A stretch of 51,084 bases of DNA from Nitrospirae bacterium GWC2_56_14 (GTDB taxonomy: Bacteria > Nitrospirota > UBA9217): positions 502 to 51,585 of the forward strand of contig MHDY01000230.1 of assembly GCA_001803705.1 (NCBI GenBank). Direction: 5' to 3'. A model generated the notes under the pieces. The model saw nothing but the letters and a program-made list of their open reading frames with translations, ran no database searches and was not told where the DNA came from. The position numbers and the translations under genes were made by a program. Below are positions 44,918 through 51,084 of the stretch, piece by piece. Numbering within the stretch: the stretch's first letter is position 1; each line of letters opens with the position of its first letter.

Positions 44918-44943
44918 CGACAAGTTGTCATGCGCCTTGACAA
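44918..44943 (+). promoter_or_regulatory. Candidate enhancer (UAS) palindromes upstream of the sigma-54 promoter
   Basis: CGACAAGTTGTC palindrome plus TTGTCA-N7-TGACAA (44925-44943), located about 60-85 nt upstream of the -24 element. Confidence 0.3.
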
Positions 44944-45003
44944 GGTGTTCCCCATTTTCCTTTTTGTTTGCAGAGACCCCTTGAATAATCAGTAAGTTTT
45001 GAG

Positions 45004-45019
45004 TGGCATTTCACTTGCA
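45004..45019 (+). promoter_or_regulatory. Sigma-54 (-24/-12) promoter of the REC-HD-GYP/cheA operon
   Basis: TGGCAT-TTCAC-TTGCA, about 60 nt upstream of ATG 45078. Confidence 0.65.
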
Positions 45020-45077
45020 TTCTCCCGTCGAGTGCGCGCGGCTCTCTGCGCTTGTGTCGGGAACACAGGGGATAACC

Positions 45078-46112
45078 ATGGTGAAAAAAGCAACGAGAAT
45101 ACTGCTTGTCGACGATGAGGTGAACATCCTGCATGTGCTCACCGACATCCTGCGCGAGATGGATTGCTACGTAAGGACCGCCAACAGACCGGAGGAAGCG
45201 CTTCGTTTGATGAACGAAGAGTCCTTTGACATCGCTTTTGTCGATAATTTTCTCGGCTCGATCGAAGGGATCCAGCTCATCGAGCAGATGGGCAGGATGG
45301 ATCCGGACCTGCATTATGTGCTCATGACCGGAAATCCGAACATCGATCTTGCCATTGCTTCCCTCAAGAAAGGCGTTGCCGATTTCCTGCGCAAGCCCTT
45401 CCGGATCGAGGATATCCTGATCAGCATCGATCATGTGAACAGAAAAAGGGAGTTGGAGCAACAGCGCAAAGAGCTCATGAGCGTTCTTGAGCTGAAGGTG
45501 CAGGAAAAGACCGATGAGTTGAAACAGATATATCTGTCGGTCCTGGTTACGTTGTCGCGCACGGTGGAAAAAAAAGACCTGGGAACATACGGCCATAGTA
45601 TGCGGGTCAGCCATATATCCGGCCGGATCGCGCAAGGCCTCGCCCTTTCCGCGCAAGAGGTGGATGATGTCAAAGCCGCATCGTTGCTCCATGATATCGG
45701 CAAGATCGGGATCAGCGACTGCATTCTGGCGAAGCAGGGGCCGCTCACAGAAGAGGAGTCCGGCATCGTTCGCAGCCATACCCGGAAAGGGGTGGAGATC
45801 CTGCAGCCGCTGAAGCAATTCGAGGCGCTGCTGCCCGCGATCCTGTATCATCATGAGCGGTACGACGGTTCGGGGTACCCTGCGGGCCTGTCGGGCGATG
45901 TTGTCCCGCTTTCGGCGCGGATCATCGCCGTGGCCGACACCTATGACGCGATCCTGTCGGATCGGCCCTACCGGCCGGCGGCCACGCACGACAAAGCCAT
46001 GCAGGAGCTTCGCGCCTGGTCGGGAAAACAGTTCGACGCCCGGGTGGTGAGCGTTTTTGACCGTATCATGCACGAGGAAGAAGACAAAGCCGCTTTAGCG
46101 AGGACCGCATAA
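45078..46112 (+). CDS. Response regulator with HD-GYP output domain (RpfG-like c-di-GMP phosphodiesterase type)
   Basis: REC domain RILLVDDEVNILHVL...DIAFVDNFLGSIEG. HD motif LLHDIGKI and canonical HHERYDGSGYP. The TAA stop overlaps the cheA ATG (TAATG). Confidence 0.9.
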   Translation: MVKKATRILLVDDEVNILHVLTDILREMDCYVRTANRPEEALRLMNEESFDIAFVDNFLGSIEGIQLIEQMGRMDPDLHYVLMTGNPNIDLAIASLKKGVADFLRKPFRIEDILISIDHVNRKRELEQQRKELMSVLELKVQEKTDELKQIYLSVLVTLSRTVEKKDLGTYGHSMRVSHISGRIAQGLALSAQEVDDVKAASLLHDIGKIGISDCILAKQGPLTEEESGIVRSHTRKGVEILQPLKQFEALLPAILYHHERYDGSGYPAGLSGDVVPLSARIIAVADTYDAILSDRPYRPAATHDKAMQELRAWSGKQFDARVVSVFDRIMHEEEDKAALARTA

Positions 46113-48359: not shown

Positions 48360-48923
48360 ATGACGAAAGCAGCGGCACAGGTAATGGCAGTGGCAGTCTT
48401 GGTATTGCTCTCAGGCGCAGTCTCCGCCGGAGAGAAGGCATCGCAAAAGGTGGTGGATCTTGGCCGCACAACCCTTCTGAAGGTCGGGACCGATCCCGTT
48501 ATTGTAAAAGCGGTGCGTGCAGAAAATGCGAAAGGAAAAACGCTGGCCCAGGTCAAGGATATGGACAAAAAATGGCTGGCAACGCCGGGCGTTGCCGACT
48601 ACATGAAGGCGCTCATGACCAATGAGTGCGGCGCCCGCCTGAAAGGCATCAAAAAATCCGCTCCCTATTACGAAGAGATTTTCGTCATGGACAATCAAGG
48701 GGCGAATGTCTGCATGAGCGATAAGACGTCGGACTACTGGCAGGGCGACGAGGACAAGTTCATCGAATCCTACAAAGGCGGCGCGGGAGCGGTGCATATT
48801 TCGGACGTCAAGTTCGACGAGAGTTCCCAATCCTACGTTGTCCAGGTGTCGGTGCCCGTAAAAGATGGCGGCAAAGTCATAGGCGCCATAACCTTTGGGC
48901 TCAACGCCGACAAGGTGCAGTAA
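48360..48923 (+). CDS. Secreted stand-alone Cache/PDC-like sensor-domain protein
   Basis: Signal peptide [55 protein letters not shown]...[23 protein letters not shown] follows the Cache pattern. No transmembrane or output domain. AAGGAGGA lies upstream of ATG 48360. Confidence 0.6.
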
Positions 48924-48984
48924 TCTGCGGGCGGTGGGCGCAAAAACCCGCATTACACCTGCAACCATGAAGGAGGGGGAGATA

Positions 48985-50700
48985 ATGAAATGGTTCATCA
49001 ATCTGAAAATAGGCAGCAAGTTGATGCTCGGATTCGGCATCATGATCGTCTTGATGGGGATCATCGGGTTCTCCGGCTATCGGGGCGCCAGCGCCATCAA
49101 CGGCGAGTTGGAAGAGATTTTCAATGTAAGAATGCCCGCACTTGATTATCTGGTCGAGGCCGACCGGGACCTGCAGCAGCTGCTTGTGGCGGAGCGCTCC
49201 ATGGTGTTTGCGGCAGTCGATTCAGAGGTGTTCAATCAACTGGTCAAGGATTATGAAGAAAACCTTGGGCAGTCGGACGAGCGGTGGCAGAAATATAAGT
49301 CCCTTCCTCGCCTGACGGCAAAGGAAACCGAGATGTTCCCCCGGTACGACAAGGCCCGGGAAGAGTGGAAGGCGCTTTCCCGCAAGGTGGTAGACGGGCG
49401 CAAGGAAGACTCGAGCGACGGGCGCAGGCTGGCCATCGACCTCACCCTGGGCGAGGCCCTGGCGAAGTTCAACGAAATGCGGGGCTATCTGAATGATCTG
49501 CAGGAAATCAACCTGGAGGTTGCGAAAGAAGCGAATCGGAATGCGGAGTCCACATATTCCGCAACAACGATATCCAGCATCACGGTTACGGGGCTCGGCA
49601 TACTGTTCGGCATCTTCCTCTCCCAGGTGATCAGCCGGGGGATCACCAAGCCCGTTTCGGATACCATGCTGGTGCTGGAGAAGGTGAGCGCGGGGCAACT
49701 GAATAACCGGCTCAATGAAGACCGCGAGGACGAACTGGGGCAGATGGCCAAGGCGCTCAATCGCATGACATCGAAGCTCAACGAGATCGTAAGCAGTGTT
49801 CTGACGGCGTCGGGCAACGTGGCCTCCGGCAGTCAGCAGCTTTCGGCGAGCTCCGAGCAAATGTCCCAGGGGACGACGGAACAAGCGGCATCCGCTGAAG
49901 AGGCGTCATCGTCGGTGGAAGAGATGAGCGCCACGATCAAACAGAACGCCGACAATGCCCAGCAGACCGAAAAGATCGCCCTCAAATCCGCCCTGGACGC
50001 ACAGGAGAGCGGCAAGGCTGTGAGTGAAACCGTGAGCGCTATGAAGGACATTGCGGCAAAGATCTCGATCATCGAAGAGATCGCACGCCAGACCAACCTG
50101 CTGGCCCTGAACGCGGCGATCGAGGCGGCCCGCGCCGGCGAGCACGGCAAGGGCTTTGCCGTTGTGGCCTCGGAAGTTCGCAAGCTTGCCGAGCGGAGCC
50201 AGACCGCGGCCGGCGAGATCAGCAAGCTGTCGGCCTCCAGCGTCGATGTGGCGGAAAAGGCGGGAACCATGCTGGCCAGGCTTGTGCCGGACATCCAGAA
50301 GACGGCGGAGCTGGTGCAGGAGATCAGCGCGGCCAGCAAAGAGCAGAACTCGGGAGCAGACCAGATCAACAGCGCGATCCAGCAGCTCAACCAGGTGATC
50401 CAGCTGAACGCGGGCTCGACCGAGGAGATGGCGTCGACGGCCGAGGAACTTTCGTCCCAGGCAGAACAGCTGCAGGAGACCATATCCTTTTTCAAGGTGG
50501 AGGAAAACGGTTCCGGCAGGCCGGCACATGGCGGAACCGTACAAAAAGCGGTGAAGCCAGCCGTCCGTATGCAGCTTGCCCACGTGGCCTCCAAGGCCCC
50601 CAAGGCGGCAGCGGGGTTAAGGCGGGGTGTTCATTTGAACCTCGGCCACACAGAAAAGGCCGCGGGAGACAGCAGGGACTCGGAGTTTGAGAAATTCTAA
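48985..50700 (+). CDS. Methyl-accepting chemotaxis protein (four-helix-bundle sensor, HAMP)
   Basis: [30 protein letters not shown]-terminus, second transmembrane helix plus HAMP. Highly conserved hairpin [51 protein letters not shown] lies upstream of ATG 48985. Confidence 0.93.
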
Positions 50701-50816
50701 TAAGCAGATGAAAGACAACGGACATTCGGAGGACAGGCTAAAGCGCGAGCTTATATTTTTGGTCTGTCTTTTGTTTGTCTGAATAGCTGATGTCTTTTTT
50801 CACAAGGAGGTAAGTC

Positions 50817-51084
50817 ATGGCAGTCGCAGAGATGACCCAGACGACCCAATACCTGACCTTCAAGCTTGGCGACGAGGTCTTCGCCCTGGAAATCACCAAG
50901 GTCCGCGAAGTGCTGGATTTTACGACCGTCACCAAGGTCCCCCGGACGCCGGACTTCATGCGGGGGGTCATCAATCTGCGCGGAAGCGTGGTCCCGGTGG
51001 TGGACCTGCGGCTCAAGTTCGGCATGCAGGGGACGGAAAAGACGGTGAACACCTGCATCATCATCCTGGAAGTGCGGGTGGACA
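50817..51084 (+). CDS. cheW: CheW coupling protein (5' part; runs off the window)
   Basis: My own translation from ATG 50817 gives MAVAEMTQTTQYLTFKLGDEVFALEITKVREVLDFTTVTKVPRTPDFMRGVINLRGSVVPVVDLRLKFG..., a typical CheW. AAGGAGGT lies upstream. It is absent from the ORF track because no stop codon lies in the window. Confidence 0.88.
   Translation, partial: MAVAEMTQTTQYLTFKLGDEVFALEITKVREVLDFTTVTKVPRTPDFMRGVINLRGSVVPVVDLRLKFGMQGTEKTVNTCIIILEVRVD

Follow-up and report, generated by a model that had tools for sequence, protein, structure and literature searches.

Chemosensory outputs other than motility are known, to our knowledge, mainly from the Wsp system of Pseudomonas, which makes c-di-GMP (cyclic diguanosine monophosphate). 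Response regulators of the RpfG type, in which a receiver (REC) is joined to an HD-GYP domain, are well known (RpfC/RpfG of Xanthomonas; PA4781 of Pseudomonas aeruginosa). When a receiver is encoded in a che operon, as CheY, CheB and WspR are, it is normally a substrate of CheA. Chemosensory genes are connected to an NtrC-type activator and sigma-54 in the Che3/CrdA system of Myxococcus and in flagellar regulons (FlrA/FlrC, FleQ/FleR and FlgR). In the 51,084 nt stretch of Nitrospirae bacterium GWC2_56_14 analysed here (contig MHDY01000230.1; the whole stretch is hereafter called the window), a cheA operon preceded by a putative sigma-54 promoter opens with the gene for a REC-HD-GYP regulator. 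This arrangement was not described in the literature searched.

Chemoreceptors of the 34H class carry a class-specific CheR tether, xF/YxxF/Y, for which the Geobacter consensus is EFEKF (PMC2577667). This tether has been placed in the Geobacter 'E. coli-like type 2' clusters, which also hold cheD, several cheW genes and non-che genes (PMC2577667), and 34H receptors have been assigned to class F8 (PMC7184735; PMC11253619). In addition, the group alpha che clusters of Geobacter hold a stand-alone HD-domain protein (PMC2577667).

Proposed signalling unit

The best explanation of the locus, in which confidence is evenly balanced, is a two-layer signalling unit in which a CheA array has the REC-HD-GYP regulator as an output. 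In the first layer, a PAS-rich membrane kinase would phosphorylate the adjacent NtrC-type activator. This would bind both dyads at 44919-44950 and let sigma-54 RNA polymerase open the promoter at 45004-45019, with a transcription start near 45030. In the second layer, the transcript would encode an array of the 34H/F8 kind, consisting of CheA, two methyl-accepting chemotaxis proteins (MCPs) and two CheW proteins, each MCP being preceded by its own putative periplasmic binding protein. REC-HD-GYP and a coiled-coil GAF protein would be candidate outputs, together with a CheY-like single receiver that is postulated from the nearest relatives. The ligand state of the MCPs would set the autophosphorylation of CheA at His60, and the CheY-like protein would receive the phosphoryl group, as most likely would Asp56 of REC-HD-GYP. 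Phosphorylation would alter HD-GYP activity through the long helical linker (residues 110-166) and so shift the level of c-di-GMP or of 3'3'-cyclic GMP-AMP (3'3'-cGAMP), while adaptation would involve CheR and CheB recruited to the EFEKF and DFERY tails of the receptors. The domains, the catalytic and phospho-acceptor residues, the promoter with its conservation, the order of the genes and the class of the receptors are observed features; who phosphorylates whom, the substrate and the physiological output are all inferred.

The operon and its promoter

The REC-HD-GYP regulator (344 aa; Pfam Response_reg 2e-21, HD_5 2e-37) is encoded at 45078-46112 on the forward strand. It is followed at 46112-48193 (+) by cheA, encoding a 693 aa protein with the Pfam Hpt, dimerisation, HATPase and CheW domains. 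The last base of the REC-HD-GYP stop codon (TAA, 46110-46112) is the first base of the cheA ATG at 46112, an overlap that also occurs in two of the related loci, L005 and L006 (related loci and contigs are referred to below by L numbers). An earlier note, made by a model from the letters and open reading frames (ORFs) of this DNA, had described a canonical HD-GYP motif, a TAATG overlap with cheA and the gene order REC-HD-GYP, cheA, Cache-like, mcp and cheW. The motif, ILYHHERYDGSGYP, is present, the overlap lies at 46110-46114, and ORFs and Pfam gave the same gene order. The promoter sits between the kinase and REC-HD-GYP genes, and REC-HD-GYP is placed in one operon with cheA. This favours CheA as its kinase, as do the conservation of all the key residues of REC-HD-GYP and the presence in CheA of the P1 histidine and a complete core.

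Public gene calls start REC-HD-GYP at 45015, giving a product of 365 aa and an overlap with the -12 element of the promoter. The ATG at 45078 is favoured here because it has an AGGGGA ribosome-binding site and gives a length that fits the orthologues (337-345 aa).

The putative sigma-54 promoter (TGGCAT-TTCAC-TTGCA, with the -24 GG and the -12 GC) is located at 45004-45019 (+), 59 nt before the REC-HD-GYP ATG, in the 424 bp intergenic region (44654-45077) that separates this gene from the kinase gene. Four matches to TGGCAY-N5-TTGCW were observed in the window and 0.07 expected. The other exact matches, at 27714-27729 (-), 27961-27976 (+) and 30422-30437 (-), have no GACAAnTTGTC dyad. The first two point outward in the intergenic region that separates two divergent genes, one for a four-haem cytochrome (26630-27517, -) and one for a 1399 aa cytochrome/PKD protein (starting at 28379, +). 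The third, inside the latter ORF, may be due to chance.

The earlier note had also reported TTGTCA-N7-TGACAA palindromes upstream of the promoter. The plural was wrong, since the exact palindrome occurs in a single copy in the window (44925-44943), and a better reading of this stretch is a pair of dyads with a spacing of 20 bp, GACAAGTTGTC (44919-44929) and GACAAGGTGTTC (44939-44950), approximately 55-85 bp upstream of the promoter. In L005, from a Nitrospiraceae metagenome-assembled genome with a CheA 81 % identical to that of the window, the promoter and dyads are kept, while the remaining intergenic DNA has diverged. In the window and in seven relatives with protein identities down to 55 % (L005-L011), the first operon gene has a promoter match 54-75 nt upstream, and looser matches with one or two mismatches are found in L099, L100 and L101. 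The element that the earlier note had placed at 45004-45019 is thus conserved in all 10 related contexts. The dyads are conserved in L005, L006 and L007, and have a diverged form, ACAACnTGTCC, in L008, L009 and L011, in each case amid intergenic DNA that has otherwise diverged. A sigma-54 promoter with candidate upstream activator sites is therefore a prediction well supported by conservation. From adjacency and co-conservation, we infer that the adjacent activator binds the dyads at 44919-44950. No sigma-70-like site was found in the 44654-45077 intergenic region. A simple scan found no terminator between the kinase gene and the promoter, so read-through from the kinase gene into the operon may occur.

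The genes for this activator and its putative kinase are located directly upstream, where Pfam bore out the pair described in the earlier note (40553-44653). The NtrC-type sigma-54 activator (438 aa; 40553-41869, +) consists of a receiver, an AAA+ domain with GAFTGA in the translation, and HTH_8 (Pfam Sigma54_activat 7e-71, Response_reg 4e-30, HTH_8 4e-11). The membrane histidine kinase (892 aa; 41975-44653, +) has three PAS domains followed by HisKA and HATPase_c (PAS_4/PAS_9 in three stretches, HisKA 3e-12, HATPase_c 3e-26). Its called start is the ATG at 41975, as in the gene call for L001, and the ORF opens at a TTG at 41930. A 1220 aa hybrid kinase, with a weak dCache match, several PAS domains, HisKA, HATPase and a C-terminal receiver, is encoded divergently from the activator gene (36609-40271, -). 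The same arrangement is found in L006, and the hybrid kinase may for this reason be part of the same regulatory unit. No rpoN gene was found among the large ORFs of the window scanned against Pfam.

The remainder of the cluster

Downstream of cheA is a gene for a secreted single Cache/PDC-like protein (187 aa; 48360-48923, +), with a signal-peptide-like N-terminus and weak Cache matches (dCache_1 33 bits, 5e-8, under the Pfam cut-off; MCP-like_PDC_1 6e-6, at the cut-off). This gene is not present in L005 or L006. Its product is a candidate periplasmic ligand-binding partner of MCP1 (571 aa; 48985-50700, +), in which Pfam detects 4HB_MCP, HAMP and MCPsignal. The end of the window truncates the gene for CheW1 (50817-51084, +; Pfam CheW 6e-27).

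L001-L004, contigs from a groundwater metagenome, are identical to the window, and, as the earlier note had proposed, the cluster continues beyond its end. L001 supplies the missing part of CheW1 (161 aa when complete), followed by a PhnD-like periplasmic binding protein and the beginning of a second receptor. L093, which overlaps L001 by 2082 identical bases, adds MCP2 (574 aa), a second CheW (169 aa) and 260 residues of a protein with a coiled coil and a GAF domain. In the nearest relatives, L006 (HD-GYP 90 % identical) and L096, the next gene after the GAF gene encodes a 124 aa single receiver with a GYVTKP motif like that of CheY, and unrelated genes come after it. By analogy, a CheY-like gene very probably follows the GAF gene in the window's own organism. 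The earlier note had named a separate CheY, if CheA preferred it as substrate and did not phosphorylate the HD-GYP regulator, as a point that would tell against signalling from CheA to the HD-GYP enzyme. A separate CheY-like receiver closes the cluster in the nearest relatives, and in the organism itself the order is confirmed as far as the GAF gene. Of the other genes that the note had suggested might lie downstream, neither cheB nor cheR is present in the window, in L001 and L093 (4.4 kb recovered downstream), in L005 or in L006, and the CheR and CheB for this cluster must be encoded elsewhere in the genome.

The coiled-coil GAF protein (~275 aa) and the 124 aa CheY-like receiver form a pair (L093 3737-4516; L006 16689-17909; L008 14615-15892), apparently more conserved among distant relatives than REC-HD-GYP (57 % identity, L006 versus L008). 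No NCBIfam family names the coiled-coil GAF protein.

The binding protein encoded before MCP2, just past the window end (L001 12549-13412, equivalent to L093 320-1183), is PhnD-like, and further matches are to the tetrathionate kinase TtrS, in its periplasmic sensor (2e-12), and to a putative selenate-binding protein. In MCP2 no ligand-binding domain was recognised. Taken with these matches, this suggests that MCP2 may sense an oxyanion indirectly, through the PhnD-like binding protein.

Related loci and the kinase of REC-HD-GYP

Ten distinct genomic contexts of the REC-HD-GYP clade (50-90 % identity) were compared with 80 generic REC-HD-GYP metagenome loci (30-49 % identity). The latter, the only REC-HD-GYP genes given by a metagenome scan, are distant and were used as background and not for close-relative synteny; their flanks total 566 kb, and on a given side a flank of at least 2.5 kb is available for 33-36 of the 80 loci. 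By the labels of its closest relatives, the clade belongs to Nitrospirota. A sigma-54 activator adjoins REC-HD-GYP in all ten clade contexts, its receiver being 73 % identical to that of the window activator in L008 and 62 % in L100. The PAS kinase is beside the activator in nine, and the tenth locus starts inside the activator gene. Eight of the ten contexts contain cheA, cheW and mcp. In the 80 background loci cheA, cheW and mcp are absent throughout, and such an activator occurs in only three, so that both the che and the activator associations are clade-specific.

In most contexts REC-HD-GYP is the first gene of the che cluster. It is the last in L099, where the Che system is of a different type (its CheR lacks the long beta-loop and its MCP the pentapeptide). 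In L009 and L011 a second REC-HD-GYP paralogue is located beside MCP-CheW, with no kinase nearby, and che-linked copies are found in three of the four subclades of a neighbour-joining tree. The che linkage thus survives rearrangement, which again favours signalling from CheA to REC-HD-GYP. L100 and L101 contain no che genes: L100 has the activator, the PAS kinase and REC-HD-GYP, with a hybrid kinase downstream in place of the che genes, and L101 has only the activator, the PAS kinase, a sigma-54-like promoter and REC-HD-GYP.

Some further features of the related loci were noted. The first gene after the sigma-54-like promoter in L100 (7686-8003) encodes a complete cysteine-rich 'two-CW domain' protein (NCBIfam 2e-33), and at the equivalent place in L101 (~7412-7480) there is only a short ORF, with an N-terminus, MKQNCWEFKK, similar to that of the L100 protein. 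Split genes (cheA, activator and GAF gene) in L007 (11025-12773) and L096 (2717-9358 and 13476-14302) look like frameshift errors in long assemblies rather than pseudogenes.

A branched two-component feed-forward loop is the strongest alternative to the two-layer unit, at distinctly less than an even chance. In such a loop the PAS kinase would phosphorylate both the activator and REC-HD-GYP, and the activator would switch on the REC-HD-GYP gene. The che genes, added downstream of the same promoter in some lineages, would have the CheY-like receiver (with CheB, where there is one) as their only target, and the HD-GYP enzyme would not be a Che output. It is well established that one kinase can feed several receivers, HD-GYP and EAL proteins among them, as in the H-NOX/HnoK network of Shewanella. 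Several observations point the same way, and weigh against CheA as the donor. L100 and L101 keep the activator, the PAS kinase, the sigma-54-like promoter and REC-HD-GYP without any che gene, and in L101 no other kinase is nearby, which indicates that the REC-HD-GYP regulator can function with no CheA encoded nearby. CheA (8/10) is a less constant neighbour than the activator (10/10) and the PAS kinase (9/10). Given this, and the trio standing alone in L101, the gene neighbourhoods do not single out CheA as the REC-HD-GYP kinase. The REC-HD-GYP receiver is NtrC-like rather than CheY-like: it is 28 % identical to the receiver of the activator and 18-19 % identical to the CheY-like protein and E. 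coli CheY, and its nearest solved receivers are NtrX and NtrC1. Finally, the separate GYVTKP receiver of the nearest relatives is available as an ordinary CheA partner, the docking of which the putative P2-like domain of CheA (see below) would suit. Receiver similarity was itself rejected as a guide to the kinase, since the identities (18-32 %) are low and differ too little from one another to settle the matter. A likeness in alpha-1 (DDExNI..L) to the receiver of the activator is a common motif and was given no weight.

The branched loop is at odds with the position of the HD-GYP gene, which is located after the promoter, outside the kinase-activator unit, and overlaps cheA. In L099 it ends the che operon, at a distance of seven genes from the activator. 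In L010 single receivers flank it, cheA follows, and the kinase there precedes the activator. In addition, the paralogues in L009 and L011 adjoin MCP-CheW with no classical kinase beside them, and the complete lack of che genes in the 80 generic loci indicates that the association is not due to chance. The two-layer unit remains the preferred explanation. CheA as phosphodonor to REC-HD-GYP is put at about an even chance, and the PAS kinase as sole donor at distinctly below that; both kinases could act on the regulator.

The REC-HD-GYP enzyme and its substrate

In 14 orthologues (52-90 % identical), the receiver residues D12, D13, D56, T84 and K106 are conserved, and the HD-GYP residues H173, H205-D206, H234, H258-H259-E260, D263, G266-Y267-P268 and D287 are invariant. 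The AlphaFold (AF2) model (pLDDT 79.5) consists of a receiver, a 57-residue helix (110-166) and a helical HD-GYP domain. The enzyme is very probably active, and is predicted from these features to be a phosphorylation-controlled cyclic-dinucleotide phosphodiesterase.

The matches that bear on its substrate are in conflict, which is a further point against the proposal. The top PDB sequence match of the HD-GYP domain is Vibrio cholerae V-cGAP3 (5z7c, 1.8e-40), a 3'3'-cGAMP-specific phosphodiesterase, ahead of PmGH and PA4781. As this is the top solved sequence match, c-di-GMP is only an assumed substrate, and 3'3'-cGAMP could be the substrate instead. That the enzyme degrades 3'3'-cGAMP and not c-di-GMP would be compatible with any of the wirings considered, and its probability, which stands outside the sum of the other confidences, is low. 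Structure comparison with Foldseek puts c-di-GMP enzymes first (PmGH 4mcw, c-di-GMP-bound DvhD 9rbz and PA4781 4r8z), and the best NCBIfam model is that of the NosR-family c-di-GMP phosphodiesterases, although its score of 225 bits is under the cut-off of 400. Rfam found neither cGAMP nor c-di-GMP riboswitches in the window, which also gives no support to a 3'3'-cGAMP substrate. The pathway with a c-di-GMP-degrading output put forward in the earlier note is thus supported only in part: the HD-GYP residues and the place in the cheA operon bear it out, the gene neighbourhoods do not single out CheA as the kinase, and c-di-GMP is an assumed substrate.

CheA, receptors and chemosensory class

CheA consists of a P1 domain, with His60 in the motif HTIKGS, followed by P3, P4 and P5. 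It has no C-terminal receiver and ends with the CheW-like P5. Its PDB matches are E. coli and Thermotoga maritima CheA over residues 22-135 and 303-679, and the core scores slightly higher against the E. coli than against the T. maritima protein. Between P1 and P3 is a segment of ~95 residues (about 173-262; 46628-46897 in the window) in which the Pfam P2 model is not detected. This segment is present in four of seven aligned CheA proteins (window, L005, L006 and L008) and absent in L009, L010 and L011. A word-indexed homologue search with the 104 aa middle domain returned no homologues. A model of this domain built without an alignment (pLDDT 56) has the order beta-alpha-beta-beta-alpha-beta, which is the topology of P2. 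All of its Foldseek matches are weaker than E 0.001, and the top TM-score in the list is to T. maritima P2. This is a hint only that the middle domain may be a divergent P2-like domain.

Heptad classing of the MCPs, as proposed in the earlier note, gave class 34H. Against the 36H receptor Tsr of E. coli, exactly one heptad is missing from each arm in MCP1, in MCP2 and in the L008, L009 and L010 receptors; the deficit is symmetric about the hairpin tip, and the EQ/EE methylation pairs of the cluster MCPs fall in register with the Tsr pairs. The C-terminus of all nine cluster receptors is [E/D]-F-E-[K/R/H]-[F/Y] (EFEKF, DFERY, EFERF, EFEHF, EFEKY), MCP1 in EFEKF and MCP2 in DFERY. In the more distant relatives L008 and L010, cheD, cheR and cheB are located inside the cluster, and CheR keeps the long beta-loop of the pentapeptide-dependent E. 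coli CheR. By heptad class, pentapeptide and literature, rather than by class profile models, the cluster is assigned to the 34H/F8 kind.

Membership of the Wsp-like alternative cellular function (ACF) class, suggested by the analogy drawn in the earlier note, was rejected: there is no GGDEF domain in the cluster, no C-terminal receiver in CheA and no methyltransferase or methylesterase gene in the cluster, and the receptors are instead 34H with a pentapeptide.

That the cluster is an ordinary 34H/F8 system for motility, with the CheY-like protein as its only real output and REC-HD-GYP mainly a phosphate sink or modulator of phosphorylated CheY with a secondary enzyme activity, is improbable: the 34H receptors with pentapeptide and methylation pairs, the cheR, cheB and cheD genes of relatives, the prediction of flagellar chemotaxis for Geobacter clusters of the 34H kind (PMC2577667) and the modulation of swimming by the P. 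syringae F8 system (PMC11253619) would all suit it, but the HD-GYP catalytic residues are invariant in 14 orthologues, which argues for selection on enzyme activity, there are no flagellar genes in the 51 kb window, and expression appears tied to a dedicated activator rather than to the flagellar hierarchy.

Other features of the window

The region 18348-34731 encodes multihaem c-type cytochromes (Paired_CXXCH, MtrC/MtrF-like), NHL beta-propellers, a 686 aa porin-like protein, a SurA/PpiC-like protein and the 1399 aa cytochrome/PKD protein. The gene content of this cluster suggests a module for extracellular electron transfer. Beside it, at 16656-18212, is a gene for a second sigma-54 activator. 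Rfam gave nothing in 27400-28450, even at E up to 1, that would link a riboswitch to the cytochrome genes. It is tentatively suggested that an array whose direct enzymatic output degrades a cyclic dinucleotide (a mirror of Wsp), installed only when its private kinase/activator pair is active and working beside a CheY-like and a coiled-coil GAF partner, could, by way of c-di-GMP or cGAMP, tie the sensing of periplasmic ligands to this neighbouring sigma-54-driven cytochrome/porin cluster.

A second HD_5 protein, without a receiver, is encoded at 9577-11040 (+), after the gene for a HEAT-repeat protein (7539-9635). It has the motif LLHDMGK and a variant HHQHGERGYP, and its N-terminal ~230 residues have no Pfam match. 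The only Rfam family at threshold in the window is 6S RNA (RF00013, 90 bits), at 1712-1891 (+).

Comparison with known systems

The earlier note did not know the arrangement as characterised, and in the full-text literature searched there was no description of a CheA with a REC-HD-GYP partner. In the literature searched, REC-HD-GYP as a conserved member of che operons, the coiled-coil GAF and CheY-like pair, and a private activator/kinase pair with a conserved promoter were likewise undescribed. The significance of the locus depends on whether CheA really signals to the HD-GYP enzyme. If it does, the conserved association of CheA with a c-di-GMP-degrading regulator would represent control of the opposite sign to Wsp, and one CheA serving two kinds of output would be a testable case. 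The locus would also be a clean case, found in nature, of one signalling pathway controlling through sigma-54 whether another is present at all. If the PAS kinase is the true partner, the locus would be a branched two-component system whose transcript also carries chemotaxis genes, a less remarkable finding. The ten related loci provide material from which proteins for phosphotransfer tests can be chosen.

The REC-HD-GYP protein resembles RpfG-type regulators in its combination of a receiver with an HD-GYP domain, in its full set of metal-binding and GYP residues and in its fold (4mcw, 9rbz, 4r8z). Unlike it, those enzymes are partnered with classical or hybrid kinases. As in the Wsp system of Pseudomonas (ACF class, with WspR a REC-GGDEF cyclase), a chemoreceptor and CheA are encoded together with a receiver-coupled c-di-GMP enzyme. 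However, Wsp makes c-di-GMP, whereas the REC-HD-GYP protein would degrade it; WspE is a hybrid of CheA with a receiver, whereas the CheA described here has none; and the Wsp cluster holds methyltransferase and methylesterase genes, which the window cluster does not. The receptors also differ, being 34H with a pentapeptide, and in relatives there is a separate CheY-like protein.

The 34H/F8 clusters (Geobacter type 2, P. syringae cluster II and M. alcaliphilum F8) are alike in their 34H receptors with the xF/YxxF/Y end, their multiple cheW genes and their non-che genes, and share with the relatives of the window cheD and a CheR with the long beta-loop. A REC-HD-GYP protein, a coiled-coil GAF protein and a dedicated sigma-54 activator/kinase pair were not reported for them in the literature searched. 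The group alpha clusters of Geobacter also have an HD-superfamily phosphohydrolase gene within a che cluster of a metal-respiring anaerobe, but the HD protein is without a receiver and is not described as HD-GYP, and these clusters have no mcp genes and are confined to the Geobacteraceae. In Myxococcus Che3 the activator is the output of the Che pathway, whereas here it would act upstream and switch the Che operon on. In flagellar hierarchies the activators belong to the flagellar cascade, whereas here there is a private pair of PAS kinase and activator. The arrangement is thus a variation on known signalling parts.

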